Counted from the stretch's first letter, positions 9,615 to 60,198 are shown. The stretch is DNA of 64,000 bases from a bacterium (GCA_021796335.1 JAJYHZ010000002.1:192998-256997); one strand, 5' to 3'. Numbers and translations are program-made. The notes: a model not told the origin generated them from the sequence alone.

Positions 9615-9660
9615 TGTGGATAACCAATCAAATTTTGAGCGATCGCTCAAAATTTGATTG
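9615..9660. repeat. palindrome family B copy 1 (caatcaaattttgagcgatcgctcaaaatttgattg) preceded by tgtggataa (DnaA-box reverse complement)
   Basis: perfect 36-bp inverted repeat; same sequence at 27183 and 27923. Confidence 0.8.
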
Positions 9661-9765: not shown

Positions 9766-10062
9766 ATGAAAGAACCGATATTAAAGAAAGCAATATTAAT
9801 CATCACCGATAGCGAGGATAAGGCGGAGGCCTTATGCGAAAAAGCTTTTTTGAAAATGCCTGACGGCCAATACGAAGAAACTTTGCTGGATGTCCGGGTT
9901 ATAAAAACAGCGGAAGAAGCGCGTTCGCTGGTAAATAACTATAGCCATCCTGAATATCCATTAATTGAGCTTAAGGAGGTAAATCTTGATTCAAGCCATA
10001 GCAGTTATCACAGGATCGCTATGGCCCTTTCGAGATTCGGGGATAAGGATTTGGGTGTGTAG
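9766..10062 (+). CDS. hypothetical protein
   Basis: 98-aa ORF with RBS aaaaggagg upstream; palindrome B1 ~100 bp upstream; terminator downstream. Confidence 0.4.
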   Translation: MKEPILKKAILIITDSEDKAEALCEKAFLKMPDGQYEETLLDVRVIKTAEEARSLVNNYSHPEYPLIELKEVNLDSSHSSYHRIAMALSRFGDKDLGV

Positions 10063-10115: not shown

Positions 10116-10298
10116 TACTTCCAATTATTTTAGTATACACTTTTTTCGATCGTTGAAATTGTATACTGAAGCAATTAACAAAATTATTGACAAATGTCGT
10201 AATATCAGCATAATATTTGTCAGTATCATTTCGAAATAAAGAAGCCATTGGCTTCTAAATAAGATAGAATAAAATCGCGATACAAAAGGAGGATTGCA

Positions 10299-21260: not shown

Positions 21261-21294
21261 ATCGTATATCTTGACGATCGTCAAGATATACGAT
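21261..21294. repeat. palindrome family A copy 1 (atcgtatatcttgacgatcgtcaagatatacgat)
   Basis: perfect 34-bp inverted repeat; variant of 38-bp palindromes at 34471 and 35096. Confidence 0.8.
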
Positions 21295-22177: not shown

Positions 22178-22346
22178 CGGCGAAGGGCGAATAGTAAATA
22201 GAAAATAACAAATCAAGAATATTTTATTCGGAACTTTTCCGATTTTTTGTTTTCCAATCAAATTTAGTATTTAATCGGTAATTAAAAATTTATTCGGCAG
22301 TGAAATTATTGACATCATTGCCGAATTTTTTTAGGATTATGGCAAT

Positions 22347-23168
22347 ATGGCTTCCAGATCTGAATTTATAAAAAGCAGGTCATTTGAAATCGCATGGGCG
22401 GTTTTTCGTTGTGCTGATTTGGTAAAAAAAGAAAAACTTAAAATAGAACTTGAGGGTGCGGCAGTTGAACTCGTCGCCAAACGAGAACAATTCAAAAGCC
22501 AAAAACATGGCAAGCTTGATTTGCCCCATATTGATAGTCTTCTGGCTATAATAAAATTAGCTGAGGCGGTTAATGAGATAAAGCCGATAAATGCCAAAGT
22601 GCTTTACCGTGAACTGGATAACTTATTAAGAGCTATAAAAGAAGAATTATTTGAAATAGAGAAAGAAGATCGGGAAACTGGAAGCTTAATCGAGGATATC
22701 TTTTCCAAGCCTCCAGCAATTATCCATACGGTTCAGGAAAAAGATATGAGTTCGGCAATTCGGCAAAATATTGATAATTTAGAAAGAACTGAGAAGAAAA
22801 GTGATTTAAAGGAGAGTTTGGCAAGTATTTTTATTGGGCAAGAATTCGGCAATTCGGCGAAATTTACTCACGGGAATTCAAATAAAGCTGTTTTCGACAA
22901 TTCGGCAAATAATAATGCCAAACCAAATTCGGCAGATAATAAAAAAACAGCGGTTTTAGACGAAGGGCAATTGGACTCCTGGCAAGGCCTTATATATAAG
23001 AAGGTAAAAGAATTGGGGTCTATTTCGACCAGGGAAATTTCGGCATTTTTTCCGGAAATAAGCGAAAGAACAGTCAGGTTTTATTTACAAAAGCTGGTGG
23101 AATCAGGGTTTGTTGAAAAAATAGGGAGTACCGGTCCCGGCAGCTACTACAAACTTCCTAATAAGTAA
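22347..23168 (+). CDS. hypothetical protein with C-terminal winged-helix DNA-binding domain and internal NSA-repeat low-complexity region
   Basis: C-terminus ISTREISAFFPEISERTVRFYLQKLVESGFVEK wHTH-like; repeats encoded by iterated aattcggca. Confidence 0.4.
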   Translation: MASRSEFIKSRSFEIAWAVFRCADLVKKEKLKIELEGAAVELVAKREQFKSQKHGKLDLPHIDSLLAIIKLAEAVNEIKPINAKVLYRELDNLLRAIKEELFEIEKEDRETGSLIEDIFSKPPAIIHTVQEKDMSSAIRQNIDNLERTEKKSDLKESLASIFIGQEFGNSAKFTHGNSNKAVFDNSANNNAKPNSADNKKTAVLDEGQLDSWQGLIYKKVKELGSISTREISAFFPEISERTVRFYLQKLVESGFVEKIGSTGPGSYYKLPNK

Positions 23169-23613
23169 TCGGCAAGTAAATACTCGGTAGTTCGGCAAGG
23201 ATTACTATAAGTAGTTTGGCATTAAGTCTAATATTCGACGATCCTGCTGCCGGCAGGCAGGCGTCAAATATTAGATCGGAAATTAAAAATTAGTCTTTAT
23301 TCCAATAAATGAAACAATTTACCCTATATCAGCGTTTTCCTTACAAATCCCTTTTTGGGAGCAGGTTGATTCGATGTCTCGCGAAAGCGGCTGTACAGAG
23401 GATTGACAAAAGAATAAAGCAATTTTAGAATTAATTATTATATTGGTTTGCCCGGTTAACGGGGCAGACCTGCCGGAAGAAATTTAGAACGCATAAATTT
23501 CTACGGGGTTTAGAGTGAGGCTAAACCCAAGGATAGTTATAAGCATTAGTTTTTAGTGATTAGAATTTTACTGATTACTAACGACTGATATCTAACAACT
23601 AATCACTTTTTTA

Positions 23614-27108: not shown

Positions 27109-27140
27109 TTGCAAAACCCCTCGAAAGAGGGGTTTTGTTT
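27109..27140 (+). terminator. strong rho-independent terminator after S-layer-like gene
   Basis: aaacccctc-gaaa-gaggggttt + tgtttttg. Confidence 0.85.
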
Positions 27141-27182: not shown

Positions 27183-27229
27183 CCAATCAAATTTTGAGCG
27201 ATCGCTCAAAATTTGATTGGTTATCCACA
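27183..27229. repeat. palindrome family B copy 2 (38-bp perfect) immediately followed by TTATCCACA DnaA-box consensus
   Basis: ccaatcaaattttgagcgatcgctcaaaatttgattgg + ttatccaca; ~70 bp upstream of 27301 gene and its TATAAT-like -10. Confidence 0.8.
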
Positions 27230-27300
27230 GAGAAGTTATTTAAAGAATTGCCGTATTATTTGTTATAATTTATTCACATTATATTAATCTTGATAGGGTC

Positions 27301-27852
27301 ATGATAATACATCATATTTTGGAAATAATCAGGGCAGCCGGAATTATTTCGGCTGATGTCGCTTTTACCGATTATCACACTTCTTATAGGAGGATGCGGC
27401 GGATGATGAGATATGGAGTTGATTCTTACTTGGAATTAAACGATTTTAAAAAACATAAGGAGTCCGAGAGAAACAGGTTTAACAGCCTCCTTTGGTATTT
27501 GAAGAAAAAAGGATTGATTGAACGGAAAAAAGGTAATAAATGGAAGATAACGGAAGGCGGAATAAAATGGCTAAAGACGCATTCTCATAAATTGATTCCG
27601 TTTGAAAGCAATGAATTAAAAAAGGGAGAGAAAATAATAATTATTTTCGATATCCCCGAGAAAAGCAAAAAGAAACGAGATTGGCTTAGGAAAAGTTTGG
27701 TTAACATCGATTTTAAAATGCTTCAAAAGAGCGTGTGGATGGGAGATTCGAAATTGCCGGAGGAATTCATTTTGGAAATGAAAAATTTAAACATAATTTC
27801 CTATATCCATATATTTTCGATTAAAGAGAAGGGATCGATTGATTTTAAATAG
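27301..27852 (+). CDS. wHTH + Cas2/VapD-like domain protein (PaaX-like architecture), paralog 1
   Basis: C-terminal IIIFDIPEKSKKKRDWLRKSLVNIDFKMLQKSVWMG matches Cas2 pattern (hhhYDh..KRR.kh.k.L..yG.R.Q.SVF); N-terminal LWYLKKKGLIERKKGNKWKITEGG wing-like; paralog at 34536. Confidence 0.5.
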   Translation: MIIHHILEIIRAAGIISADVAFTDYHTSYRRMRRMMRYGVDSYLELNDFKKHKESERNRFNSLLWYLKKKGLIERKKGNKWKITEGGIKWLKTHSHKLIPFESNELKKGEKIIIIFDIPEKSKKKRDWLRKSLVNIDFKMLQKSVWMGDSKLPEEFILEMKNLNIISYIHIFSIKEKGSIDFK

Positions 27853-27922
27853 AAAGCCTATTTTTTGGAAAACCGCGGACGTAGGATGTAAGCCTGCGGA
27901 TATTTTCGCTTTCGATTTTCTC

Positions 27923-27960
27923 CCAATCAAATTTTGAGCGATCGCTCAAAATTTGATTGG
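27923..27960. repeat. palindrome family B copy 3 (38-bp perfect), immediately downstream of 27301 gene
   Basis: identical to 27183-27220; followed by degenerate box ggatgtccaca. Confidence 0.8.
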
Positions 27961-28215
27961 ATGTCCACATTTGATATTCGGTTTTATTTTTTATAATGGA
28001 ATTAAGCCTTGTGAGGGGGCTGGATATTTTAATTAAATAGTTTTCATTTGCTGTGGAAAGTATTTTAGGGTCTATGAGTATACAGCTCCCTCAGAAATCT
28101 TTTATAAAAATTTTTAATTGAACTACGCCGTTTTCGGCGTATTTTTGGTTGAAAGAATGTTAAGTAATTGCGATTTATGAATTTAAATAACTTTTAGTTG
28201 CGAATCGTGCGCTTT

Positions 28216-28318: not shown

Positions 28319-28858
28319 ATGACTGAATTTAATCAAAACAACAAGAAGTTTAAAAGCAAATATTGGAAATTTGTCGCCGGATTTTTTATTTTAATATTTT
28401 TGGCGATTGCCGGGTATGCTGTTTGGAACAAATATTTCGGTTCTGAAGCTAGGGCTATAAGAGCGAAACAAAAACAAATTCAATTTACTTTGGACGCGCA
28501 GAAAAAATACGAAGAGGCGATGAAAAACGACACGTACGGCGGCAAAACTCCGGAGGAAACTTTACAGATGTTTACGGGCGCTTTAAAGAAGGGTGATATT
28601 GATTTAGCGAGCAAGTATTTTGTTTTAAGAGAAGACGGAAGTGTTGATCCAAAGTGGGTGGAGGGATTGGGAAAAGAAAAAACGGATGGGAGATTGCAAC
28701 AAATTATAGGCATTATTCAAAGGTCAAAATCTGATTCAGCTCAATTAACTGATTACTCAGCTTGGTTTACCGTAGATGATAATTCAGGGATGGCTGAATA
28801 TACAATAATTTTAAATTTAGATAAGCAATCAGGAATATGGAAAATAGAAAGCTTGTAG
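28319..28858 (+). CDS. membrane-anchored hypothetical protein (N-terminal TM, extracytoplasmic domain)
   Basis: single TM WKFVAGFFILIFLAIAGYAVW; 22-bp overlap with downstream giant gene suggests operon. Confidence 0.45.
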   Translation: MTEFNQNNKKFKSKYWKFVAGFFILIFLAIAGYAVWNKYFGSEARAIRAKQKQIQFTLDAQKKYEEAMKNDTYGGKTPEETLQMFTGALKKGDIDLASKYFVLREDGSVDPKWVEGLGKEKTDGRLQQIIGIIQRSKSDSAQLTDYSAWFTVDDNSGMAEYTIILNLDKQSGIWKIESL

Positions 28859-31800
28859 ATTTTTTATTTTTAATTTTAATATTGGTAATTTTTATCGGAT
28901 CGGGTTTTATAAATCAAACGTTTGCGTATGACACGGAAACGCACGCTTATTTGACGAGCGAGATTTTTGATTTTTACAACAAAAATTTTCCGCAAAACAA
29001 ATTGGCTGATGAGTTTAAGAATTATTTGATTGACGGCAGCAGAAATGAGGATAATACGCCGAGATGGATGAATCATTTCTACGACCCCGTGAATAACCGA
29101 GGGCTTACTTGCGATAGCGCGATTGATTTAATTTGCTTAGGTAATTGGGAAAGTTCGAAAATTTGGGCAAATGACAACAATAATCAAAATAGTTTGACCT
29201 ACAAAGTGCCGGCAACAATCGCTTCGACTTTGACTGCGATTGAGCAAAAAAATTTGAGTTTAATTTCAGGCGAAACTGATTTTACCTGGAATGAGGCAAT
29301 TAAAGATTGGATTACTGGCAATAAGGGGAAAGCAATATTTATTCTCGGGCATATTCTGCATCTAATTGAAGATATTTCCGTGCCTGATCATACCAGGAAT
29401 GATTCGCATCCCGGAGACAGCCCTTATGAAAATTATAGCCAGCAATTCACTTTGGCTAATCCGGACCAAAACCTGAATAACAGGATGGTTGGCAAAAATC
29501 CGATAATTTTAAGCGATTTGGGAAATTATTTTGACGAATTGGCAAAATATTCCAATAAATATTTTTACAGCAAAGACACGATTGGAATTCAAAGCGGATA
29601 TGAATTTCCGCAACCGGATTTTACAAAATTAGAGTCAGGTGGGAAGTATTACTATGTTTTAAATAGAGATTCAGATGGCCAAAATTATTACCTCATTACA
29701 AAGAAGTCATTGGGAAATATAATTATTAGTTACCCGAATGACTATGCGTTTGATGACAAAATTTCGTCTTCCTACTGGGCTCTTCTTTCCGTGAAATCGG
29801 TTCAATACGGCGCCGGAGCGATAAATCTTTTCTTTCAGGACGTTGAAAAGGCGAAAAACGATTCGAACTTTATCAAGGCGGATACGGCGGAAAACAAATC
29901 AACTTTTTCCGCAATTTATGACACGGCAAAAACATTCGCAAACAATCTTGGCAATTCTTTGGCTTCGATTTGGACTGCGGCAAAAGGCGTTTTCAGCACT
30001 GATCAAAATTTCAATCAAGTAGCCGAAATTGATTTGCAAAACAATGCGAGCGATTCGAATTTGACCACAACCCAAAATCAAAATAAATCCCGGACAAACG
30101 CCAAAACAGTTTCTTTAAAAACGGATAGCTCGAAAACCAAAACAGATGCCGAGGTGGCAAATTTAAAAGATCAAATTAATAATCTGAAAAATAATATTGC
30201 GGCTTTGGAAAAAGAAAATCAGGCGCTTGTAAAATCGCAATCGCAGACAACCGGGGAGATTTCTAAAAATACCGCGATCGGAACGGCCGGGCAAACGAAC
30301 AATTCATCGCCGGCGCAAGTTTCTTGCGGCTTCAATACAGCTCAATCGCCGAGCCGCAATAAATTAATAATAAACGAAGTGGCCTGGATGGGTTCAAGTG
30401 CAAGCGCGAGCGACGAGTGGATTGAGTTAAAAAATATTTCCGGCGGAGATTTAAATATTTCCGGATGGCAATTAATAAGTCAGAATAATCAGATAGAAAT
30501 TAATTTAGAAGGTTTAAAAAATCAAAAAATCGGCGCGGGAAGATTTATTTTGCTGGAGCGGACCGATGATAATTCCGCCATAGGCGTTCCGGCGGATCTG
30601 ATCTACAGCGGCAGTTTGGCCAACACAAACACGGGATTGCGATTATTCGATAGCGATTGCAATTTAACTGATGAAGTTTTTGCTAATCCGAATTGGCCGG
30701 CTGGCGATAATTCTTCAAAGAAAACAATGGAAAGGGATACAAACGGCTTAAACTGGCACACTTCCGGCAATGTCGGCGGAACTCCGAAACAAGAAAATTC
30801 TTCGGCATCTTTCGCTCCAAGCGGCGGATACACAACATTTTCTCCGGCGAATACCGGCCAAAATCAAAATAATGCCGTTCAGTCGGCAGCGGCTCCGCAA
30901 TATTATCCCGTAAAAATAACGGAAATCATGTACAATCCCGAAGGAAGCGATACGGACAGGGAGTGGATAGAAATTTATAATGGCGGGATGTCGGCTGTCG
31001 ATTTAACCGGTTGGAAAATCAATGAAGGCAATGCGAATCATGGCTTGAAATTGTCCGACATCAAAACTTTAAATACGGGAGAGTACGCCGTTATAGCAAG
31101 CAATAAGGCGGGATTTCTTTCAGACTTTCCCGATTATTCGGGAAATATTTTTGAAAGCGCGATTTCTTTAAATAATGGCGGAGAATCGATTGCTTTGAAA
31201 AACGGAGATTTGAAAATTGACGAAATAAATTATTCGCCGGAAACGGGAGCTGACGGAAATGGAAAAAGCCTGCAGTTAATAGGTGGCTTTTGGAAAGAAG
31301 GAACGCCGTCGCCGGGAAAAGAAAATGCGCCGGACGCAGCGGACAAAAATCCGACAGCAGTTTTTGTTTTTAGTCCCGATAATCCGACAGCTGGGGGCGA
31401 GATAAGTTTCGATGCCTCTTCCTCGACTGATTCGGATGGAAATATTGTTGAATATGATTGGGATTTCGGCGACGGCATTTTTGCCACTACAAGCAGCAAT
31501 GCGATTACTCACACATATGCGAATCCCGGAGATTTCATGATTAGTCTGACAGTTTTTGATGATCAAAGCGTTTCGTCATCGGCAACTACTTCGATTTCAA
31601 TAAGACCAGCCGAGGATAATAACATAAATAATTCCGCAAGTCCCGCAAATATTTTTATAAGCGAGATTGTTTATGACGGCGAAGGCGATGACAGCGGAAA
31701 AGAATTTGCGGAATTGTATAATGCGTCCGATCAGACCGATTTAACAGGCTGGGGCTTAAAATATAAAAAAGGAGACGCGACTTCAGCCGAAACCTTGGCG

Positions 31801-33036
31801 GTTTTTGGAAACAATAGCAATGACATCACTGTGATTCCGAAAAACGGATTTCTACTGATCGGCTTAAATAATTATGACGCAGCTAATTATAACCAGGCTG
31901 CGGCCGATATTTTAAGATCAACGAGTTTGCCAAATGGAACAGCTACGGAAACTGTCGACGTAATTTTATACGATGAGAACGGGAATAAAATTAATAGCGT
32001 AAATTATAATGCGGATTCCGCTGCTAGCGGGGCAAGTTTGGAGCGGAGGGCTTTGGTGAACGGCGAATGTGTTATTGCACAAAACGAAAACGAATATTCG
32101 GGAAACGGATGCGATTCGAATAACGTTCTCGACAAACGGGAAATTCCAAATCCGCAGAATTCAAAAAGCCAAAGCGAGCCGAGAACTCCGCCGCCTGCGC
32201 CGGAAAATTTCACCATTAATTTTGAAGAAAATCCCATGCCGGAAGGATATAAACTTGATTGGAAACCATTGGATTTAAATTTAAGCTGGGGGGCGCCGCA
32301 AGGGTACGAAAATTTAAATTATGAAATAAAGGATATAAGCGATTCGGCAAATCATTTTCCCGACATTAAAGCAAAGGCGACTTCGGCAAAGATTTACATC
32401 AATGAGGTCGGCCGGGATTATAAATTTGAAATTTCGGCGATTGACGATATTGGTTTAAAATCCAGTTCAACGCAGTTTTCCATAAATGTTCCCAGTTTTT
32501 TTAAATCCGTTTCGTTTTATTCCAATAGCACATCTTCTTATTCACTTGATTTGAGTTGGGATAAATATCCGTTCATTCCCGATCCAAAAGCCGGAAGAAA
32601 AGTTGTAATTTTTTATTATAACCAGGATGCGCCGGCAATAGGCGATATCAAATGGATTTTCGGGAATGATTATAAAATGTGGGGATTGATCGGACCTGCA
32701 GGCGCCTTGTCTTTGGAATATCCGAATTGCTCGACTCTTTATCCGACTAAAGGAAAATCTTTAATACTTCCCGACAGTCCCAAGTACTGCAACGTTGATA
32801 CGGATCAGGGGAAATACGCAATTAATTACAATTTATTAAATAATCAAAAAATTTCTTTGACCGTATCGAGCAATCAATTTAATTCCGCTCCGGAATCCGG
32901 AAAGGATTATGTGACAATGGCGTTTTATTCTTTTATCCCCGGATATGAGCCGAATGATTACGGAACAAGAATAGTGGGAGTTGATAAAACTAAATATTAT
33001 TTTGAAGGAATTAAAGAAAATTTAAATCCCCTTTGA
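28837..33036 (+). CDS. giant secreted multidomain protein: Zn-dependent phospholipase C/S1-P1 nuclease-like domain + coiled coil + three lamin-tail domains (LTD) + PKD domain + C-terminal beta domains
   Basis: HFYDP and HLIEDISVPDHTRND (Zn-PLC-like); coiled coil ~aa 440-470; LTD motifs INEVAWMGS...DEWIELKNISGGDLNISGWQL, ITEIMYNPEGSDTDREWIEIYNGGMSAVDLTGWKI, ISEIVYDGEGDDSGKEFAELYNASDQTDLTGWGL; PKD VFVFSPDNPTAGGEISFDASSSTDSDGNIVEYDWDFGDG. Confidence 0.75.
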   Translation: MENRKLVDFLFLILILVIFIGSGFINQTFAYDTETHAYLTSEIFDFYNKNFPQNKLADEFKNYLIDGSRNEDNTPRWMNHFYDPVNNRGLTCDSAIDLICLGNWESSKIWANDNNNQNSLTYKVPATIASTLTAIEQKNLSLISGETDFTWNEAIKDWITGNKGKAIFILGHILHLIEDISVPDHTRNDSHPGDSPYENYSQQFTLANPDQNLNNRMVGKNPIILSDLGNYFDELAKYSNKYFYSKDTIGIQSGYEFPQPDFTKLESGGKYYYVLNRDSDGQNYYLITKKSLGNIIISYPNDYAFDDKISSSYWALLSVKSVQYGAGAINLFFQDVEKAKNDSNFIKADTAENKSTFSAIYDTAKTFANNLGNSLASIWTAAKGVFSTDQNFNQVAEIDLQNNASDSNLTTTQNQNKSRTNAKTVSLKTDSSKTKTDAEVANLKDQINNLKNNIAALEKENQALVKSQSQTTGEISKNTAIGTAGQTNNSSPAQVSCGFNTAQSPSRNKLIINEVAWMGSSASASDEWIELKNISGGDLNISGWQLISQNNQIEINLEGLKNQKIGAGRFILLERTDDNSAIGVPADLIYSGSLANTNTGLRLFDSDCNLTDEVFANPNWPAGDNSSKKTMERDTNGLNWHTSGNVGGTPKQENSSASFAPSGGYTTFSPANTGQNQNNAVQSAAAPQYYPVKITEIMYNPEGSDTDREWIEIYNGGMSAVDLTGWKINEGNANHGLKLSDIKTLNTGEYAVIASNKAGFLSDFPDYSGNIFESAISLNNGGESIALKNGDLKIDEINYSPETGADGNGKSLQLIGGFWKEGTPSPGKENAPDAADKNPTAVFVFSPDNPTAGGEISFDASSSTDSDGNIVEYDWDFGDGIFATTSSNAITHTYANPGDFMISLTVFDDQSVSSSATTSISIRPAEDNNINNSASPANIFISEIVYDGEGDDSGKEFAELYNASDQTDLTGWGLKYKKGDATSAETLAVFGNNSNDITVIPKNGFLLIGLNNYDAANYNQAAADILRSTSLPNGTATETVDVILYDENGNKINSVNYNADSAASGASLERRALVNGECVIAQNENEYSGNGCDSNNVLDKREIPNPQNSKSQSEPRTPPPAPENFTINFEENPMPEGYKLDWKPLDLNLSWGAPQGYENLNYEIKDISDSANHFPDIKAKATSAKIYINEVGRDYKFEISAIDDIGLKSSSTQFSINVPSFFKSVSFYSNSTSSYSLDLSWDKYPFIPDPKAGRKVVIFYYNQDAPAIGDIKWIFGNDYKMWGLIGPAGALSLEYPNCSTLYPTKGKSLILPDSPKYCNVDTDQGKYAINYNLLNNQKISLTVSSNQFNSAPESGKDYVTMAFYSFIPGYEPNDYGTRIVGVDKTKYYFEGIKENLNPL

Positions 33037-33103: not shown

Positions 33104-33661
33104 TTATTTGCTTTCTTTTTTCGGGACCGGAGATGAGACGGCTTCTATTTTAAGATCTTCGTCTAAAAGGATTATTCTGTCGGCCCTGTCTTTTAATTCT
33201 CTGGAAATCGTGCCTTTTGACGACACAATCGTGACTTTAATATCAATATTTTTCAGAGAATCAATAAGATACGCAAAGTCGGAATCTCCCGAGATGAGCA
33301 CGACTTCGTTGCAATCGCGACGCCAGGCATGACGGCAGATATCAGTGGCGATTTCAACATCGAAGTTCGCCTTATTTTTGATACTACCGTTACTGAGACT
33401 GATCGTCTTGATCTCTTTTGCGACAACCCTGAAGCCGGAAAGTTCAAGATAGTCATAAAATTTTTTCCAGCCGGGATTTTCGGGTTTTTCTATATAGATC
33501 GATTTCTCGACCAAGTCTGACCCGAGCGTCACTGTTTCTACGAGCTTGTTAAAGTCAAGCCTAACCTGGGTCAAGCTCATTTTTTTTGCCTGGATGATTG
33601 CGGCAAAGGCCGCTCCGATGTTTGCTTTGTCTATCAGCACGACAGACTTTGATTGCGGCAT
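33104..33661 (-). CDS. NYN-domain (LabA-like/DUF88) PIN-fold nuclease
   Basis: VVLIDKANIG...DVEIATDI...VVLISGDSDFAYLI acidic-residue pattern of NYN domains. Confidence 0.7.
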   Translation of the reverse strand: MPQSKSVVLIDKANIGAAFAAIIQAKKMSLTQVRLDFNKLVETVTLGSDLVEKSIYIEKPENPGWKKFYDYLELSGFRVVAKEIKTISLSNGSIKNKANFDVEIATDICRHAWRRDCNEVVLISGDSDFAYLIDSLKNIDIKVTIVSSKGTISRELKDRADRIILLDEDLKIEAVSSPVPKKESK

Positions 33662-34470: not shown

Positions 34471-34508
34471 TTATCGTATATTTTGACGATCGTCAAAATA
34501 TACGATAA
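34471..34508. repeat. palindrome family A copy 2 (ttatcgtatattttgacgatcgtcaaaatatacgataa), 28 bp upstream of 34536 gene
   Basis: perfect 38-bp inverted repeat. Confidence 0.85.
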
Positions 34509-34535
34509 GATGAAAAATATTAATTATTAATTAGA

Positions 34536-35093
34536 ATGAAAGGAGAAAAACGATTAAGAATTTTAGAGGGAATTGAATTAGGGATGGATACTATCGGAGA
34601 TTTAGTTTTTATATTTAGTTTGCCGTACGGAACTTCCTTTTCTAAAATGAGATATCTGCTTGCAAATAGGGATAGATTTAAAAAATCAGACAATAATAAT
34701 GAAAAAAAGAGATTCCAGGATTTAATGTATCATTTGCGAAGAGACGGTCTAATCGACGAATCCAAAAGAAAGCTCATTTTAACTTTAAAAGGAAAAAAAT
34801 TTTTAAATAGAAAAAAATTTACAACTTTTTCATATAAAAAAGAAAGCGACAATATAATAAAAATAATAATATTTGATATTCCCGAATCTCAGAGAAGAAA
34901 AAGGGTGTGGTTGAGGCAGGCTATAAAAACAATGGGGTTCCAAATGATACAAAAAAGCGTCTGGTTGGGTAAAGTAAAAATCCCGGAAGAATTTTTAAAT
35001 GATTTAAAAAATATGAATCTGATGAATTATATAGAGATTATCGGAATTACAAAGATAGGAACTTTAAAACAAATGAAATATTTTAATCTTTAA
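34536..35093 (+). CDS. wHTH + Cas2/VapD-like domain protein (PaaX-like architecture), paralog 2
   Basis: IKIIIFDIPESQRRKRVWLRQAIKTMGFQMIQKSVWLG aligns with paralog 1 and Cas2 pattern; N-terminal LMYHLRRDGLIDESKRKLILTLKGKKFL wHTH-like. Confidence 0.5.
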   Translation: MKGEKRLRILEGIELGMDTIGDLVFIFSLPYGTSFSKMRYLLANRDRFKKSDNNNEKKRFQDLMYHLRRDGLIDESKRKLILTLKGKKFLNRKKFTTFSYKKESDNIIKIIIFDIPESQRRKRVWLRQAIKTMGFQMIQKSVWLGKVKIPEEFLNDLKNMNLMNYIEIIGITKIGTLKQMKYFNL

Positions 35094-35095
35094 TC

Positions 35096-35133
35096 TAATC
35101 GTATATTTTGACGATCGTCAAAATATACGATTA
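35096..35133. repeat. palindrome family A copy 3, 3 bp downstream of 34536 gene stop
   Basis: taatcgtatattttgacgatcgtcaaaatatacgatta perfect 38-bp inverted repeat. Confidence 0.85.
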
Positions 35134-35307
35134 GGGCATGCGTGGGGAGCGCATGTCTAGCCAGATTTTTTTAAGTCCAATATTTTTAAGTCCAATATTT
35201 CGCGCAGTTTTTCGGTATTTTGCCTGGGCCTTTTAAATTTGTTATAATTAATTTAAATAAGTGCTTCCTGGGATAGTATTCTTTTAAAAAATAAACTTCT
35301 TAACTTT

Positions 35308-39627: not shown

Positions 39628-40334
39628 AGGGTATTATTTTGGCGGGAGGAAATGGAACACGTTTAAGGCCATTGACTCTTATAACAAATAAGCATCTTTT
39701 GCCGGTTTATAATAAGCCGATGATTTTATATCCCTTAGAAACTTTAAGAAAATCGGGCATTGATGAAATTATGATAGTTTGCGGGAAAGAACATGCCGGA
39801 CATTTTATGAATTTTCTGAGTTCTGGGGAAAATTATGGAGTAAAATTATCTTATGCACTTCAGCATGATGCTGGGGGAATAGCTGAGGCATTGGGATTAG
39901 CAGAGGATTTTGCTGATAATGGTAAAATTGCAGTTATACTGGGGGACAATATTTTTGAAGATGATTTTTCGAATAATATTAAATCTTTTAGGAAACAAAA
40001 TGGAGCAAAGGTTTTTATAAAAAAAGTTACTGATCCGACTAGGTTTGGTATTGCAGTAATAAAAGAAGGGAAAATAATCAGTATTGAAGAGAAGCCTAAA
40101 AATCCTAAATCGAATTTTGCAACAGTCGGGTTTTATCTTTACGATTCCGATGTTTTTAAAAAAATTAAAAATCTAAAACCATCCAAAAGAGGGGAATTGG
40201 AAATAACGGATGTCCATAATATGTACATAAAAGAAAATAATTTATCCTATGGTGTTGTTAAGGGATTTTGGTCAGATGCCGGCACATTTGAATCTTTATT
40301 TAAGACCTCTAAGTGGGCACTATCTAGAAAATAA
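39624..40334 (+). CDS. rfbA: glucose-1-phosphate thymidylyltransferase (short form)
   Basis: MKGIILAGGNGTRLRPLT nucleotidyltransferase motif; position within rml operon; 236 aa lacks sedimentation/allosteric C-terminus. Confidence 0.75.
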   Translation: MKGIILAGGNGTRLRPLTLITNKHLLPVYNKPMILYPLETLRKSGIDEIMIVCGKEHAGHFMNFLSSGENYGVKLSYALQHDAGGIAEALGLAEDFADNGKIAVILGDNIFEDDFSNNIKSFRKQNGAKVFIKKVTDPTRFGIAVIKEGKIISIEEKPKNPKSNFATVGFYLYDSDVFKKIKNLKPSKRGELEITDVHNMYIKENNLSYGVVKGFWSDAGTFESLFKTSKWALSRK

Positions 40335-40886
40335 ATGGCAGCTAATTTTATACAAACAAATTTTAGAGAATCTTTTATTATTGAACCCAAAGCTTTTGAA
40401 GACCATAGGGGTTATTTTATGGAGTCTTATAATATTAAAGATTTTCAAAACAAAGGGATTACTGATAAATTTATTCAGGAGAATTTTTCTTTTTCCCAGA
40501 AAAACGTTTTGAGGGGAATGCACTTCCAAAAATCACCTCATGAAACAAGCAAATTTATTCGTTGTGTGGAAGGGGAAATTTACAATGTTATGATAGATAT
40601 TCGCAAAAACTCGTCGACTTTTGGTAACTGGCAAGGGTTTTTCTTATCCAAAGAAAACAGAAAGATGCTTTACGTGCCTAAAGGATTTGCCAATGGATTT
40701 TGTGCCATAAGCAATGGAGCGGGAGTTGCTTATATGGTGGATGAGTTATATTATCCTGATTTTGCTGGAATTATTAGATGGGATGATCCTGATATTGGTA
40801 TTTCTTGGCCAGTCAAAAATCCAGTTCTTTCTGAACAAGACAAAAACGCTCCATTTTTAAAGGAAATTATTGATTTTCTAGGGTAA
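40335..40886 (+). CDS. rfbC: dTDP-4-dehydrorhamnose 3,5-epimerase
   Basis: FIIEPKAFEDHRGYFMESYN ... LRGMHFQ ... cupin fold motifs of RmlC. Confidence 0.85.
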   Translation: MAANFIQTNFRESFIIEPKAFEDHRGYFMESYNIKDFQNKGITDKFIQENFSFSQKNVLRGMHFQKSPHETSKFIRCVEGEIYNVMIDIRKNSSTFGNWQGFFLSKENRKMLYVPKGFANGFCAISNGAGVAYMVDELYYPDFAGIIRWDDPDIGISWPVKNPVLSEQDKNAPFLKEIIDFLG

Positions 40887-40903
40887 GTTGCTTATTCTAA
40901 AAT

Positions 40904-41731
40904 ATGGATTTTTCAAAAACCTTAATTACTGGTGGCGATGGGATGGTCGGCAGCTATGTCGATTTTGGTGTTAAAACAAATAAAAGATCTCTAGATATAA
41001 CAGATTTAAAAGAAGTCTTACTTGTGGTAAATAAATATAAACCTAAAGCCATATTACATTTAGCGGCAGAGACCGATGTTGATCGCTGTGAGCGTGATCC
41101 ACAATTTGCTTATTTTATAAATTCAATCGGAACTTATAATATTGCTTTAGCTGCCAAGCAGATTGGGGCAAAACTGGTTTATGTATCTACAAATGCTATC
41201 TTTGATGGAAAGAAAAAAACTCCTTACCAAGAAAATGATGCACCCAATCCGCAAAATTATTATGGTCATTCTAAATTTTTGGGAGAAGCAGCAATAAAAG
41301 AATTATTAGAGGACTACCTCATTGTTAGAGCTTCTTGGATGTTTGGTGGAGGGCCAGCAAAAGATCAAAAGTTTGTTGCAAAAATTATCAATCAAATAAA
41401 AAATCCAGAAATTAAAGAAATTAAAGCAGTCACAGATCAAATAGGTGCCCCTACTTCTGGGAAAGATTTGGTAAAAGGAATAAAATTTCTTTTAGAAAAA
41501 GATGAGAAAGGAATTTTTAATTTGCCAAATTCTGGAATAGCTTCAAGGTATGATGTCGCTAAATTTATAATAAATACATTAAGACCAGAAGTTAATGTGA
41601 TTCCCGTGGATTCTTCTTATTTTAATTTAGATGCTAAGAGAATTGGGAATGACGGTTTAATATCAAAAATTAATATAATGCGTTCATGGCAGGATGCTAT
41701 GGCAGAATATTTAAAAGAAGAATGGATTTAA
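40904..41731 (+). CDS. rfbD: dTDP-4-dehydrorhamnose reductase
   Basis: short-chain reductase GGDGMVGS, ILHLAAETDVDRCERDP, STNAIFDG RmlD motifs. Confidence 0.8.
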   Translation: MDFSKTLITGGDGMVGSYVDFGVKTNKRSLDITDLKEVLLVVNKYKPKAILHLAAETDVDRCERDPQFAYFINSIGTYNIALAAKQIGAKLVYVSTNAIFDGKKKTPYQENDAPNPQNYYGHSKFLGEAAIKELLEDYLIVRASWMFGGGPAKDQKFVAKIINQIKNPEIKEIKAVTDQIGAPTSGKDLVKGIKFLLEKDEKGIFNLPNSGIASRYDVAKFIINTLRPEVNVIPVDSSYFNLDAKRIGNDGLISKINIMRSWQDAMAEYLKEEWI

Positions 41732-41748
41732 AATAATTAATCAAAGCT

Positions 41749-42981
41749 ATGAAAGAAGAATTTGTTCATAATAATAAATGTAAAAGTTGCGATGGTGTTA
41801 ATTTAGTGAAGTTTTTGGATTTGGGATCTATGCCTCCAGCCAATGCTTTTTTACCTAAAGATGAACTGAATAATGCCGAAGATAAATTTCCTTTGGCTGT
41901 TTATTTTTGTCAGGATTGTGCCATGGTCCAACTTTTGGATGTTGTTGACCAAGATATTCTTTTTGGCCGCTATAACTATTTAACATCAGCTAGTAAACCA
42001 TTGGTGGATCATTTTATCCAAATGGGGAATGAATTAGTAAATAAATTCATTAAATCCAGAGATGATTTAGTGGTTGAGATTGGAGGAAATGATGGGGTAT
42101 TAGTTGGTGCTATTAAAGATAAATGCAGAGTTTTAAATGTGGAACCTGCAAGCAATATTGCGGAAATTTCTAGAGAAAAGGGGATAGAGACCATTAATAA
42201 ATTTTTCAATAAAGATTTAGTGGAGGAAATTTTGAAGAAATATGGCAATGCTAAAGTTATTGTCGCCAATAATGTTATGGCTCATATAGATGATTTAAAG
42301 AGCGTATTTGAAGGCATAAAAATTTTAATTGGAGGGGATGGGGTTTTTGTGTTTGAAGTTCACTGGGTTGGTAATTTGTTGGGCGAAGGCGGATTTGATC
42401 AAATTTATCATGAGCATCTTTATTACCACTCTTTAATTTCTTTGAGGAATTTTGTAAAGCAATTTGGTTTGAATATTTTTGATATTGAAACGGTCCCTAT
42501 ACATGGCGAATCAATGCGAGTTTATGTAAGTAAAAATATGCCAATAAGTGAAAATGTTGAAAAATTTTTAACAAAGGAAAAACAACTCGGACTTGATAGA
42601 GCGGAAACATTTTTAAATTTTTCAAAAAAAGTTGAAGATAATAAAATAAGATTAAAATCGATTCTTAACGAATTAAAAAAAGAAAATAAAAAAATAATTG
42701 GCTATGGTGCGCCCGCAAAAGGCAATACATTACTTAATTATTTTGAAATAGACAGCACTATTTTAGGTTACATAATTGATACAACGCCTCTAAAACAAGG
42801 AATGTACACGCCTGGAACACATATTATCGTGAGTTCGCCAGATAGAATAAAAGAAGAATTACCGGATTACATTTTGCTTTTAGCTTGGAATTATGCAGAT
42901 GCTATTTTAAATAAAGAAAAAGAATTGCGAGAAAGAGGCGTGAAATTTATTATCCCCGTGCCTGAAGCAAAAATTGTGTAA
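41749..42981 (+). CDS. NDP-hexose C-methyltransferase-like (TylC3/Methyltransf_13+14 architecture) with N-terminal zinc ribbon
   Basis: CKSCDG...CQDCAM zinc-ribbon, class I MTase motif VVEIGGNDG, C-terminal domain typical of sugar C-methyltransferases; 410 aa. Confidence 0.55.
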   Translation: MKEEFVHNNKCKSCDGVNLVKFLDLGSMPPANAFLPKDELNNAEDKFPLAVYFCQDCAMVQLLDVVDQDILFGRYNYLTSASKPLVDHFIQMGNELVNKFIKSRDDLVVEIGGNDGVLVGAIKDKCRVLNVEPASNIAEISREKGIETINKFFNKDLVEEILKKYGNAKVIVANNVMAHIDDLKSVFEGIKILIGGDGVFVFEVHWVGNLLGEGGFDQIYHEHLYYHSLISLRNFVKQFGLNIFDIETVPIHGESMRVYVSKNMPISENVEKFLTKEKQLGLDRAETFLNFSKKVEDNKIRLKSILNELKKENKKIIGYGAPAKGNTLLNYFEIDSTILGYIIDTTPLKQGMYTPGTHIIVSSPDRIKEELPDYILLLAWNYADAILNKEKELRERGVKFIIPVPEAKIV

Positions 42982-43026
42982 TTTTTATCTATTGCTTCAA
43001 GCAAGATTTCTTTAACTATCATAATT

Positions 43027-43977
43027 ATGAAGAGTATTTGTAATATTTGTAAACATGACGATGCAAGGCTAATTTTTTATACAAAGGATAATCGTTATAA
43101 TCCAAAAAATAATAAAAAATTTCGTCTTATACAATGTCTTAACTGTGGGTTGGTTTATATAAATCCTTTACCGGATGATTCCGCTATTAAAGATTCTTAT
43201 GGATTTAATTATTTTAAATTAAAGGATGGATCTAAACCAAAAGGAAGAATAATTCAGATTTTAAAATTCATTAAAAAAAAATTCTCTCTAAACATTTATC
43301 CTACCTACAAATTTTATAGACTTAAAAATAAATTTTTCAGTAATAATTCCGGGAAATTTCTTGATGTCGGATGTGCTACGGGATTATTAGATGAATTTCT
43401 AATAAAAGAATTTCCTAGGTGGAAATTTTTCGGAATTGAGCCTAGTGAGGGAGCTTTTAAAAGAGCTTCACGAGTGAATGAATTTAAAGTTTTTAAAGGT
43501 GCTTTAGAAGACGCGAAATATCCATCCGATTATTTCGATATTATTTTAATAAATCAAGTTTTAGAACATGTTTATGATCCTGCCTCAGTAATAAATAAAT
43601 GTTCTCACATTTTAAAGTCGACCGGGAAATTAATTATTGCTGTCCCAGATTTTAATTCTTTCAGCTCTAAAATCTTTGGTAAATATTGGTATCATCTCGA
43701 TGTTCCCAGGCATTTATATCACTTTAATATAAAATCGTTAGAACTGATCCTTGAAAGGAATGGATTTCTTATTCAGAAGAAAGAGAAAGAATCTTTACCC
43801 GGATCTTTTGTAAAAAGCATTTTTCTTTTATTCGGTTCAAACCCTGATTCATTAGATAGTTCGTATGCATGGGTTGCAGTTAAAATTTTATTTAACCCTA
43901 TTTTAAATTTTTTGAATATCTTATTTGAAAAATTTGGTATTTCCAATGGAATTTTTATTATTGCAATAAAGAATTAA
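43027..43977 (+). CDS. class I SAM-dependent methyltransferase with N-terminal Cys4 zinc ribbon
   Basis: CNICKHD...CLNCGLVY, motif I FLDVGCATG, Methyltransf_11/23-like. Confidence 0.6.
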   Translation: MKSICNICKHDDARLIFYTKDNRYNPKNNKKFRLIQCLNCGLVYINPLPDDSAIKDSYGFNYFKLKDGSKPKGRIIQILKFIKKKFSLNIYPTYKFYRLKNKFFSNNSGKFLDVGCATGLLDEFLIKEFPRWKFFGIEPSEGAFKRASRVNEFKVFKGALEDAKYPSDYFDIILINQVLEHVYDPASVINKCSHILKSTGKLIIAVPDFNSFSSKIFGKYWYHLDVPRHLYHFNIKSLELILERNGFLIQKKEKESLPGSFVKSIFLLFGSNPDSLDSSYAWVAVKILFNPILNFLNILFEKFGISNGIFIIAIKN

Positions 43978-43979
43978 TT

Positions 43980-44915
43980 ATGCCTAAAGTTTTTATTCTG
44001 ATTTTACATTGGCAAAAATATGATATTACGAGGGAATGTCTAGAATCATTTAAAAAATTAGATTATCCAAATTATAAGATTGTGGTTTTAGACAATGCAT
44101 CATCTAATGATTCGGCGCGCAGATTAGAACAAGAATTTCCACAGAACTTATTTATTTTCAATAAAGAAAACAAAGGCTATGGGGCGGGTATGAATCCAGG
44201 AATAAAATATGCTTTGGATAACGGTGCAGATTATATTTTTCTTTTAAATAACGATGTCATTGTTAGCAAAAATGATTTTTTAGTTAGACTGATTAACTTG
44301 ATGGAAAGTAATAAAAAGGTCGGTATTGCTGGCCCTAAATTATTATTTAGAGATATGACATATCAAAGATCTTATAGAAATTATTTCTTTTCCATAGCTC
44401 TTGGATTCTGGGCACCTGAAAAAGTGTTTATTTTTTTTAGAAAGATATTTGGCATACTTCCAAAAGACAATATTACTCACAAAGTTGATTGGCTAAATGC
44501 TGTTGCTTTGTTATTTAAAAGAGAAGTGTTTGAAAAAATTGGTTTGATGGATGAAAGATTTTTTTTGGGCGCTGAAGATGTCGATTTATCATTAAGCGCT
44601 AAAAATAAAGGATGGGAGACTTGGTATTGTGCTGAGTCAGAGTTAGTGCACTTAAGTTTTGTCAGTCACGACAATGAAGGCGGTGCCGGATATGATAAAT
44701 ATTGGATAGAGAGTACAATATTATTTTTAGAAAAACATTACTCTAAGATTACAGTTTTCGTAATAAGATTTTTAATTGTTTTAGGTTTATTTTTGAGAGG
44801 GCTGCAGTGGTCAATTCTTGGATTATTTAATCAATCTTATTTTTTAAGAGCAAAAAATTTTTTTAGAATAAGCTACTTTTCATTGATTATTAGACCTAGA
44901 TTTGCCAATAAATGA
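43980..44915 (+). CDS. family 2 glycosyltransferase
   Basis: VVLDNASSNDS, DYIFLLNNDV (DxD) GT-A motifs. Confidence 0.7.
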   Translation: MPKVFILILHWQKYDITRECLESFKKLDYPNYKIVVLDNASSNDSARRLEQEFPQNLFIFNKENKGYGAGMNPGIKYALDNGADYIFLLNNDVIVSKNDFLVRLINLMESNKKVGIAGPKLLFRDMTYQRSYRNYFFSIALGFWAPEKVFIFFRKIFGILPKDNITHKVDWLNAVALLFKREVFEKIGLMDERFFLGAEDVDLSLSAKNKGWETWYCAESELVHLSFVSHDNEGGAGYDKYWIESTILFLEKHYSKITVFVIRFLIVLGLFLRGLQWSILGLFNQSYFLRAKNFFRISYFSLIIRPRFANK

Positions 44916-45814
44916 TTATGAATCCTTTAGTATCTATATTGGTTTTAAATTGGAATAATTTTGATGACACTAATAATTGTGTGACTTCATTATTATCACT
45001 AAATTATAACAATTTTAATATTTTAATTATTGATAATGGTTCTACCGACAATTCTTTTATAAGACTAAAAAATAAATTCCGCGATGAGAGAATCATTTTT
45101 TTAAAAAATAAAGAAAATTTTGGTTATGCTGGAGGTATAAATATAGGCATAAAGTATGTTTTTGAAAAATTATCTTCCGATTTCATTTGGATTCTAAATA
45201 ACGATATTATGGTTGATAAAGATTCTTTAAAATTTTTAATCGATGCTGTAAATAAAAATAAGAAAATTGGTATTGCTGGTCCAACGATTTATTTGGCTGG
45301 AACTAAAAAAATAATGGAACAATATTATCGTTTAAATTTACTTTTTGGACGTTTTTTGGTTAAAACCAATCTTAATGAGAATGAAGTAGTTAAAATAGAA
45401 AATAAAAAAAATAATTACATAGGAGGAGCCGCTGTTTTTTTACGAAAGGAAATTCTAAATAAAATTGGCTATATTCCCGAAGAATATTTTATGTATAATG
45501 AGGATATAGCATGGCATCAAAAAATAAAAAATACTCAATTAGAATATTTATATGTTGGTCCAGCAAAGGTATGGCATAAAAAAGGCGCTTCTAGCGGTGG
45601 GAAAAAAACTATAATGCCTGATTATTATGACTCCAGAAATTTTCTTTATTTTATAAAAAAATTTTATCCGCTTTGGTTGCCTTATGAATTTTTTATGTCA
45701 ATTATTAATAAGGTCTTTCCCAAAGTGTTAAGAGGAGAATGGGAAAGACTCAGATATGTTTTTATGGGATTTAGAGACTTTGCAAAAGGTAAAATGGGAA
45801 AATTCGAAAATTAA
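44912..45814 (+). CDS. family 2 glycosyltransferase
   Basis: ILIIDNGSTDNS, FIWILNNDIMVD GT-A motifs. Confidence 0.7.
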   Translation: MIMNPLVSILVLNWNNFDDTNNCVTSLLSLNYNNFNILIIDNGSTDNSFIRLKNKFRDERIIFLKNKENFGYAGGINIGIKYVFEKLSSDFIWILNNDIMVDKDSLKFLIDAVNKNKKIGIAGPTIYLAGTKKIMEQYYRLNLLFGRFLVKTNLNENEVVKIENKKNNYIGGAAVFLRKEILNKIGYIPEEYFMYNEDIAWHQKIKNTQLEYLYVGPAKVWHKKGASSGGKKTIMPDYYDSRNFLYFIKKFYPLWLPYEFFMSIINKVFPKVLRGEWERLRYVFMGFRDFAKGKMGKFEN

Positions 45815-45816
45815 CT

Positions 45817-46614
45817 ATGCCAAAGGTTTCGATAATAACCCCCTTTTATAAAGGAGAAAAATATATTGGTAGGGCTATTGAAAGTATTTTAAATCAAAAT
45901 TATAAAGATTTTGAATATCTTATCGTTGATGATGGGTCAAAAACTAATTTTAATAATTATCTAACTAATAAATATGGAGGCAAAATTATTTATATAGAAA
46001 AAAGCAATGGTGGTCAGGCTTCGGCAGTAAATGTTGGGATAAAAAAAGCAAGGGGGGAATTTATTGCTTTCTGTGATCAAGATGATTGGTATTTGGATGA
46101 TAAATTATTAAAACAAGTCAATTTTTTAAAAAGCCATCCCGAAATTGCTATGGTTTATTCTGATGTCTTAATGGGAGATGAGAATGGTAAAATACTTGAT
46201 AAAACATGGATGCAATCTAGAAAAGTACGATTTTGCAGTGGAGGTTATGCCGATTGTGCGGCCAAATTATTTAAAAGGAATTTTATTCCCGCACCTTTGG
46301 CAGTTATGATTAGGAAATCTATTTTTGATCAAATAGGTTTATTTAATGAAAAATTTTCTAGCGCTTATGATTATGATTTTTGGTTTAGAATTCTAGAAGC
46401 CGGAATGCGTATTGGGAATATGGAAAATAAGTCAGCTGTTTGGAGAACTCATAGCGGCCAAGAAAGCAGGAATATAAAAAAGGCTAAAATAATGCAAATT
46501 GGAATTTTAAGAAGTTTTTTAAAGAGAAATCCAAAATTTGTATTAAACCACCCATTTTTAACTGCCTATAAAATCGTAAAATCATATATCGCTTTAATAT
46601 TCAGTTTGATATGA
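45817..46614 (+). CDS. family 2 glycosyltransferase
   Basis: VSIITPFYKGEKYIGRAIESILNQ, LIVDDGS, FCDQDD. Confidence 0.7.
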   Translation: MPKVSIITPFYKGEKYIGRAIESILNQNYKDFEYLIVDDGSKTNFNNYLTNKYGGKIIYIEKSNGGQASAVNVGIKKARGEFIAFCDQDDWYLDDKLLKQVNFLKSHPEIAMVYSDVLMGDENGKILDKTWMQSRKVRFCSGGYADCAAKLFKRNFIPAPLAVMIRKSIFDQIGLFNEKFSSAYDYDFWFRILEAGMRIGNMENKSAVWRTHSGQESRNIKKAKIMQIGILRSFLKRNPKFVLNHPFLTAYKIVKSYIALIFSLI

Positions 46615-46686
46615 ATCTATGTTTAAAAAAAAGTATATAAATTTAATAAGGAAATTTGTTGGCAATATAGAAAGAGAAAGAGTGGG

Positions 46687-47832: not shown

Positions 47833-47867
47833 ATTCGATAGTTTAATTTCGTTTCAAATAAAAATAA

Positions 47868-60032: not shown

Positions 60033-60198
60033 GGTTTGTTTCGCAAAATCTTACCGAAATAAGCAGTATACAATTGCAGCGATCGTTGCGATTGTATACC
60101 GTTTGAGGAGTTTATTTCCTGTTTTATTCCTTGATTTTAAGAGTTTGGCATTGTTTTGAAAATTGCTTATACTATAAAAATAAAATTCTTATATCTAA

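Follow-up and report, generated by a model that had tools for sequence, protein, structure and literature searches.

In Escherichia coli, PaaX binds the 39-bp site TGATTC(N27)GAATCA, represses its own promoter and carries a central 'dimerization motif' (PMC9493321). The proteins described here, which are short relatives of PaaX, are encoded by two paralogous genes, designated W1 and W2, in a 64,000-nt stretch of the genome of an uncultivated member of the Patescibacteria (Candidate Phyla Radiation, CPR), referred to below as the window. Each gene is bracketed by copies of its own long palindrome centred on CGATCG, and the same arrangement recurs at related loci. Searches of the literature on PaaX/Cas2-like proteins, Patescibacteria and CGATCG palindromes returned nothing relevant beyond cyanobacterial HIP1 and a review on PaaX, and the near-universal flanking of family genes by their own long CGATCG-centred palindromes was not found described in the searchable literature. 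The protein architecture is already captured by Pfam, and it is this bracketing for which no literature description was found. The palindromes, of which a preliminary description of W1 made no mention, are also the more informative feature of the locus.

Domain architecture and family of W1 and W2

The preliminary description proposed that the C-terminal part of both paralogs follows the Cas2 pattern and is fused to a winged-helix domain, and both parts of this proposal were borne out. A full-length alignment of W1 and W2 gives 36% identity (E 3e-26). PaaX_M (PF20803, named in Pfam 'PaaX protein central Cas2-like domain') matched W1 with 51.2 bits and W2 with 45.9 bits (gathering threshold 24 bits), and CRISPR_Cas2 (PF09827) matched them with 27.0 and 25.7 bits, respectively (threshold 23.8 bits). 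The profile searches suggested in that description returned the predicted families above threshold. Both matches span residues ~110–179, and of the Cas2 model only strand 1, helix 1 and strand 2, its first half, are matched. The NCBIfam cas2 model TIGR01573 (cutoff 24.5 bits) was passed by W2 with 30.9 bits, W1 lying just below it with 23.3 bits, and in the PaaX equivalog model TIGR02277 W1 reached 15.9 of the required 264.55 bits. Each protein was further matched at E ≤ 1 by 14–16 PADLOC models, nearly all of them for Cas2 and over the first half of the domain. A six-frame scan for the motif strings that had been quoted found them in only two open reading frames (ORFs) of the window, W1 (IIIIFDIPEKSKKKRDWLRKSLVNIDFKMLQKSVWMG) and W2 (IIIFDIPESQRRKRVWLRQAIKTMGFQMIQKSVWLG); the motifs are present in both, but the 'G-F' included in the quoted pattern is true of W2 only, W1 having D-F.

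The N-terminal half gave only sub-threshold matches to winged-helix profiles (Mrr_N, HTH_45), and its fold is a winged helix of the MarR/PadR type. Neither W1 nor W2 was matched by the Pfam models MarR (PF01047) and PadR (PF03551), or by PF07848, the N-terminal winged helix of PaaX, even at E ≤ 10. PaaX_C (PF08223), which had also been put forward as a model to search, gave no match, the protein stopping ~5 residues past the Cas2-like domain. Structure prediction and comparison were likewise suggested in the preliminary description, and in a Foldseek search with the AlphaFold 2 model the best solved match was E. coli PaaX (8a39), followed by Cas2 structures and then by VapD, the resemblance to VapD being weak (9kan, E 0.12; 3ui3, E 0.15–0.24). 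A sequence-only search of the PDB gave weak matches to MarR and Cas2 only, and hhalign paired the recognition helix and wing with their PaaX counterparts, weakly (probability 4%). The fold of W1 and W2 is thus a winged helix followed by a Cas2-type ferredoxin fold.

A word-indexed search gave 553 homologs of ~190 aa, of which nearly all listed carry PF20803. An exhaustive profile search, with clustering at 50% identity, gave 884 clusters at E ≤ 1e-30 and 3159 at E ≤ 1e-10, and nearly all of the best 150 clusters are 183–227 aa long and were matched over the full length. The organism names seen among the homologs are all those of Patescibacteria, e.g. Wolfebacteria, Liptonbacteria and Colwellbacteria. 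Depending on the source, homologs are labelled as hypothetical, PaaX, Cas2, VapD or PadR, and a few have a precomputed match to PF03551.

In an alignment of 114 homologs, residues D117, E120, R126, R130, Q142 and W146 are invariant, and F116, I118, P119, K143, S144 and V145 are nearly so. The invariant residues match the Cas2 motifs YD(I/V), KR and Q-x-S-V-F, and in a pairwise alignment with the Sulfolobus Cas2 SSO8090, D117 falls on the Asp of YDV and QKSVW on QRSAF. E. coli PaaX carries all three PaaX domains and scores 33.5 bits with PaaX_M, and in its central domain (WLLLLSEG...ALAPSLM) the Asp is replaced by Ser, the Gln by Ala and the Trp by Met, as judged by manual alignment. The CPR family thus combines the domain order of PaaX, minus PaaX_C, with a retained Cas2 signature.

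The genes lie outside any CRISPR context, as had been noted before. No CRISPR-like array was found in the window in a scan for repeats spaced 45–100 nt, and none of its 51 other ORFs of at least 100 aa matched a Cas model in PADLOC at E ≤ 1e-8; the PADLOC families that these ORFs did match at that cutoff number six. In addition, cas genes are absent among the neighbour families common to the 82 loci of a first locus set, which comprises 80 loci located in GTDB species genomes with an 18-sequence alignment and the two window copies.

Palindromes and inheritance of the family loci

Zero-loop palindromes with arms of at least 17 nt occur only six times in the 64 kb, and these are three copies of palA and three of palB, two copies of each bracketing W1 and W2, respectively (Table 1). 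No match to palA was found in 100 shuffles. The core of palB (...ATCGTATATTTTGA-CGATCG-TCAAAATATACGAT...) is distinct from palA. Eight of the 20 CGATCG hexamers of the window sit in sites of this kind, two of the eight belonging to a further type, palC. No cognate family gene for palC is present in the window, which implies at least one further paralog elsewhere in the genome. Between rpiB and the gene after it (22252–22265) there is also one exact palA half-site (TTCCAATCAAATTT) standing by itself, with no CGATCG centre, which may be a relic or due to chance.

The association of palindromes with the gene was assessed in the genome loci and in a second, independent set of 65 non-redundant metagenome loci. 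Around the 80 genome loci, strict palindromes (arms of at least 15 nt, no loop) occur at 1.64 per kb within 250 nt of the gene and at 0.043 per kb elsewhere. A flanking palindrome is present at 54 of the 65 metagenome loci, and at 22 of the 65 on both sides. As many loci that fail the test for a perfect palindrome still have one bipartite site common to both flanks, a bipartite definition was adopted, with at most one mismatch to CGATCG in the centre and at least seven of eight symmetric positions at 11–18, positions being numbered outward from the dyad. Such a site lies within 300 nt of the gene at 118 of 146 loci (about 80%), and on both sides at 85 of the 146; its density is 2.50 per kb near the gene against 0.018 per kb elsewhere, a 139-fold difference. 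The median arm is 20 nt long, and at the median the upstream site ends 31 nt before the ATG and the downstream site begins 25 nt past the stop codon.

Positions 1–4 (R-C-G-A, dyad, T-C-G-Y) are constant across the family. At positions 5–11 the upstream and downstream copies of one locus differ in 9–27% of cases, against 0–3% at positions 12–16, which hold little information across loci; symmetry fades to background by position ~21. Paralogs of one genome have different half-sites, as seen for W1 versus W2 and for the four CAYJCQ01 loci, and the half-site ATCGTAT is common to W2 and the related loci L046 and L057 of other genomes. Of 13 distant sites, seven have the same half-site as the local gene. 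This anatomy is the signature of a paralog-specific reader at positions 12–16 and a family-constant reader at the centre.

Both sites at W1 lie outside the predicted transcripts, because terminators and a promoter are placed between the sites and the transcripts. A TATAAT box identified by eye (27264–27269) follows the upstream palA copy. The position of the sites outside the transcription unit favours a role at the level of DNA. At W2, a promoter-like match TTGACG-17-TAAGAT was found inside the upstream palB copy (34483–34511). Hexamers resembling a −10 box are moderately enriched 15–39 nt downstream of the centres of upstream sites (59, against 33 in the mirror orientation), and this enrichment would put the site over the −35/spacer region, as expected of a repressor. 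The idea that the palindrome arms themselves serve as directional −10 boxes was discarded, TANNNT being found 177 times inward and 145 times outward, which is unconvincing.

W1 orthologs are part of a conserved block that begins with a ~250-aa gene and genes for a 75-aa glutaredoxin-like and a 305-aa thioredoxin-reductase-like protein (the latter two named by sequence motifs only), and continues with the family gene between its upstream and downstream palindromes, after which come a ~190-aa gene and a giant gene encoding 1300–1700 aa. Since the block is kept in about a dozen genomes at 40–47% protein identity, the gene is evidently resident and not mobile. In 65 locus pairs whose genes are at least ~76% identical in nucleotide sequence, all alignable flanks are collinear, and neither an inversion nor an empty site was seen. 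Active mobility or inversion was rejected on these grounds, only one ancient in-place inversion being found. It is seen in a clade of four loci (L017, L019, L021 and L054), where the gene is inverted in place as compared with L006, L015, L020, L044 and L051, and where the neighbours are unchanged, the thioredoxin-reductase-like gene lying on one side and the ~190-aa and giant-protein genes on the other. A single ancient inversion between the flanking palindromes could account for this arrangement.

A proposed site-specific regulator and its alternatives

The preliminary description left three options, a ribonuclease, a toxin and a PaaX-like regulator. PaaX-like DNA binding is favoured because cognate palindromic sites flank the genes, and some room is left for catalysis because the Cas2 Asp motif is invariant. 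We propose, with a probability of about 0.55, that W1 and W2 are homodimeric site-specific DNA-binding regulators of a short PaaX type. From the fold, the family, the architecture of the sites and their association with the genes, we infer binding, dimerisation and a regulatory outcome as follows. The MarR/PadR-like winged helix would read DNA, and the Cas2-fold domain most likely forms the homodimer, as does the central domain of PaaX. Each dimer would bind its own two-fold symmetric site of ~34–40 bp, with the two winged helices reading the paralog-specific half-sites at positions ~12–16 on either side of the dyad and the conserved dimer core lying over the family-wide CGATCG centre. An upstream site overlapping or abutting the promoter would provide autoregulation. 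With a second site just past the stop codon and a few intergenic solo sites, the protein would repress or insulate its own transcription unit and control adjacent promoters. The predicted targets are the operon for the 179-aa and 1399-aa LTD/PKD proteins in the case of W1, and the polysaccharide gene cluster in that of W2.

A number of observations weigh against this proposal. The family has no ligand-binding domain that would explain how a signal is sensed, and it keeps the Cas2 hallmarks, including the Asp that ends strand 1, which E. coli PaaX has lost. For a regulator it is unusual that, within a genome, most sites should flank genes of the family itself. Downstream sites are equally frequent before convergent (16 of 26) and co-oriented genes (25 of 45), which rules out that they are merely operators of the next gene, and some fill convergent gaps of 50–160 nt that leave no room for a promoter. 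Spacers with perfect symmetry are frequent, and between the copies of a locus 37 compensatory double changes were counted, against 28 single changes and four other double changes; a dimer that binds duplex DNA requires neither. The compensatory changes point either to selection for pairing in a hairpin or cruciform or to mutational correction of quasi-palindromes; template switching, by which quasi-palindromes are corrected, is a known mutational bias. Where the centre is asymmetric, it is always the gene-upstream half that is altered (nine loci, against none in the mirror arrangement), the variants being CGGTCG at five loci, CTATCG at two, and CAATCG and TGATCG at one each (L011, L018, L052, L057, L062, L045, L058, L079 and L157). 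Such centres are not predicted by purely symmetric recognition of a duplex. The covariation of protein columns with half-sites, in which winged-helix columns stand above the Cas2 core, is confounded by phylogeny and only suggestive. To these are added the clade with the in-place inversion described above, and the paralogs L082 and L097 of one 585-kb contig, whose homology stops at the outer edge of the downstream palindrome.

Several of the same observations are compatible with a site-specific DNA-processing protein. In that case the winged helices would anchor on the outer half-sites, and the Cas2-fold dimer, with a pair of Asp residues on the dyad, would nick, cleave or recombine DNA at CGATCG, possibly on a cruciform. 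A gene between two palindromes, with solo copies elsewhere, would then correspond formally to attL/attR and attB, and the symmetric core would allow both inversion and excision. The invariant Cas2 residues lost in E. coli PaaX, the perfect and loopless palindromes that evolve by compensatory changes, the bracketing irrespective of the orientation of the neighbours, the inverted clade and the end of homology in L082/L097 all agree with it. However, ortholog synteny is kept to 40–47% identity, the 65 close locus pairs include neither an inversion nor an empty site, and what inversion there is amounts to a single evolutionary event; sites are scarce away from the genes, and the protein has no recombinase or HUH fold. 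The nuclease activity of Cas2, moreover, is dispensable for CRISPR adaptation. We therefore regard DNA processing as unlikely, although it is the least improbable of the alternatives. Slightly more doubtful is a free-standing 'repeat plus Cas2-fold' module, in which winged helices would guide a Cas2-type dimer to the palindromic repeats of ~36–40 bp on either side of its own gene, where it would nick, cleave or exchange strands at the CGATCG dyad, possibly on a cruciform. If this were true, the module would represent a new class of site-specific DNA-processing enzyme and a living intermediate that connects Cas2/VapD nucleases with PaaX repressors, relevant to how the action of Cas2 on palindromic CRISPR repeats arose.

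About as doubtful as such a module is an architectural, insulator or partition-like protein that would bind on both sides of the gene, like ParB at parS or KorB at OB, and form a loop or boundary. Bracketing that does not depend on the orientation of the neighbours is in keeping with it, as are the enclosure of the whole W1 transcription unit, promoter and terminator included, and the small number of other sites; but several orthogonal paralogs per genome are unexpected for a segregation system, no NTPase partner is found among the conserved neighbours, and the distances between the centres of the two sites (579–1066 bp) show no significant periodicity at 9.5–12 bp, i.e. no helical phasing. 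The palindromes might instead act in RNA, as hairpins at the 5' and 3' ends of the mRNA or as bidirectional terminators, bound or cleaved by a Cas2/VapD-like endoribonuclease domain, given that Cas2 and VapD homologs are reported as endoribonucleases (titles of PDB entries 3exc and 3ui3), that the sites hug the ORF, and that the asymmetry of the centre variants with respect to gene direction suggests a strand-specific constraint. This is slightly less probable again, as each W1 site comes after an intrinsic terminator and before a promoter, the hairpins have none of the U-tracts seen in such terminators, and read-out of positions 12–16 by a winged helix would suit B-form DNA better than A-form RNA. 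The mismatches in the stems (17 G:T against 14 A:C) show no wobble bias, and an RNA hairpin was rejected on that count. Finally, it is very improbable that an autoregulatory DNA-binding domain is here joined to a VapD-like toxin or an effector of abortive infection. The weak structural resemblance to VapD and the VapD label given to a homolog by one data source are set against the absence of a conserved adjacent antitoxin-like partner or defence genes, PADLOC matches that are nearly all to Cas2 models, and vertical inheritance in synteny with housekeeping and envelope genes.

Genomic setting and relation to known systems

The window is ordinary chromosome, with genes for CTP synthase, NusA, GAPDH, ClpP, rhamnose and exopolysaccharide synthesis and five tRNAs. 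Families of phenylacetate catabolism were not matched among ten neighbour products or in the top NCBIfam families of the other window ORFs. The features of the window that bear on W1 and W2 are collected in Table 1.

Table 1. Coordinates of W1, W2 and associated features in the 64,000-nt window.
Feature	Position	Strand	Description
W1 gene	27301–27852	+	ATG start, 183 aa; winged helix ~1–95, linker, Cas2-like/PaaX_M domain ~108–179
Cas2-like (PaaX_M) domain of W1	27637–27837	+	residues 113–179
W2 gene	34536–35093	+	185 aa; paralog with the architecture of W1
Intrinsic terminator of the upstream 1091-aa gene	27111–27138	+	strong; puts upstream palA outside that transcript
Terminator-like hairpins	27880–27909	+	between the W1 stop codon and downstream palA
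palA, upstream copy	27183–27220		38-nt perfect palindrome CCAATCAAATTTTGAG-CGATCG-CTCAAAATTTGATTGG; between the terminator of the upstream gene and the W1 promoter
palA, downstream copy	27923–27960		identical to the upstream copy; past the W1 terminator-like hairpins, before the promoter of the next operon
palA, solo copy	9625–9660		arms 18 nt; flanks in reversed orientation; lies upstream of a TATAAT box and of a small ORF (start at 9767)
palB, upstream copy	34471–34508		TTATCGTATATTTTGA-CGATCG-TCAAAATATACGATAA
palB, downstream copy	35095–35134		arms 20 nt; 1 nt past the W2 stop codon, upstream of the polysaccharide gene cluster
palB, solo copy	21261–21294		one symmetric (compensatory) change in both arms relative to the gene-flanking copies
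palC, site 1	10132–10167		CGATCG centre, outer half-site AGTATACA, imperfect spacer; intergenic
palC, site 2	60065–60100		centre and outer half-site AGTATACA as in site 1, imperfect spacer; intergenic
DnaA-box consensus	27221–27229	+	TTATCCACA; abuts upstream palA
Related DnaA-box-like copy	27962–27969		TGTCCACA
Related DnaA-box-like copy	9615–9623	reverse	
Genes syntenic with W1 orthologs, downstream	28319–33036	+	179-aa protein without a Pfam match; 1399-aa protein with Lamin-tail and PKD domains

Past the downstream palA copy, a TATAAT box (27992–27997) is followed by a leader, AAGCCTTGTGAGGGGGCT, which is conserved in orthologous loci (L004, L015, L053 and L002). Terminator-like hairpins are found at 28005–28021 and 28124–28141, and the next gene begins at 28319. 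The stretch 27992–28150 might function as a regulatory leader, or it might be a small RNA.

A DnaA-box-like motif, (A)GTTATCCACA(GG), is found 0–10 nt from the outer end of palindromes, mostly in the group orthologous to W1. It is direct in L004, L013, L015, L034, L053, L069, L105, L142 and L146, and reversed in L006, L007, L020, L044, L126, L143 and L157. The density of such motifs is 1.0 per kb near palindromes and 0.15 per kb overall. Matches like TTATCCACA number 20 in all, against 16 expected, and are not above chance. As these matches are at the level of chance and the GC skew is positive over the whole window, a replication origin was rejected. The motif could reflect DnaA-dependent control or be the site of a second factor.

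Iteron-like repeats, (A/T)RTTCGGCAA, occur at 22318–23198 and also, in L006, L020, L004 and L051, in the interval that separates the family gene from the following one. Six of the 12 exact copies in the window form a cluster upstream of the 1091-aa surface-protein gene, and a 273-aa ORF at 22347–23168 may be spurious, since the copies cluster there. In L006 and L020, a gap of ~700 nt before the giant-protein operon is filled with many copies. Elsewhere in the window, an NYN-domain (LabA-like nuclease) gene is found at 33104–33661 on the minus strand, separated from W2 by a gene for a SpoU methylase, and matches to mad2, mad3 and mad8 were obtained among the ORFs with PADLOC. The GC content is 0.28–0.31 at 40000–48000, as compared with ~0.38–0.40 elsewhere. 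This stretch is the glycosyltransferase/rhamnose part of the plus-strand cluster downstream of W2, and may be a horizontally acquired polysaccharide island.

These findings point to a large unstudied family of site-specific DNA-binding proteins with a predicted site beside each gene. The Patescibacteria are uncultivated bacteria with small genomes, and hardly any of their regulators are known from experiment; the family would offer scores of testable protein–site pairs with orthogonal specificities, of use in understanding gene control in CPR bacteria and as parts for synthetic biology. It fills a gap between Cas2/VapD and PaaX, and makes the role of the Cas2 fold outside CRISPR directly testable. 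The link of W1 orthologs to operons for giant LTD/PKD surface proteins suggests control of the cell envelope, itself central to an episymbiotic lifestyle.

Among the known systems, Cas2 has the same ferredoxin-like fold and the same motifs as W1 and W2, i.e. a strand ending in Asp, a K/R-rich helix and Q-x-S-V-F in the place of Q-K-S-V-W. However, Cas2 is a stand-alone protein of ~90–100 aa whose gene adjoins cas1 and a CRISPR array, whereas W1 has 183 aa, a fused winged helix and housekeeping and envelope genes as neighbours. The VapD of the VapD-VapX and VapD-VapW pairs has the Cas2-type fold in common with W1 and W2, with weak similarity in Foldseek, but the latter lack a conserved small partner gene like vapX or vapW and carry a fused DNA-binding domain. 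As compared with MarR and PadR regulators, the dimerisation module would be a Cas2 fold instead of a helical one, and the site is much longer, with a separate conserved centre. Repetitive extragenic palindromes (REP) with their RAYT genes, and recombination cassettes, likewise consist of a gene flanked by its own cognate palindromes together with solo copies, but W1 and W2 have no HUH/Y1 or recombinase fold, few sites per genome and conserved synteny, and no mobility polymorphism was seen.

PaaX of E. coli and Pseudomonas (8a39, 3l09), a repressor that responds to phenylacetyl-CoA, has a winged helix followed by a central Cas2-like domain, as do W1 and W2. Its long site of ~39 bp, in which recognition is concentrated in the outer inverted repeats, resembles the palindromes of 34–40 bp that are the predicted sites in the window; a search of the E. 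coli paaX region for the PaaX operator gave only matches at the level of chance. In contrast to PaaX, W1 and W2 have no PaaX_C domain and no match to PF07848, end at 183–185 aa and have no paa genes nearby. The sites of the CPR family differ from that of PaaX in having a conserved CGATCG centre, in being often perfect palindromes and in lying on both sides of the gene.

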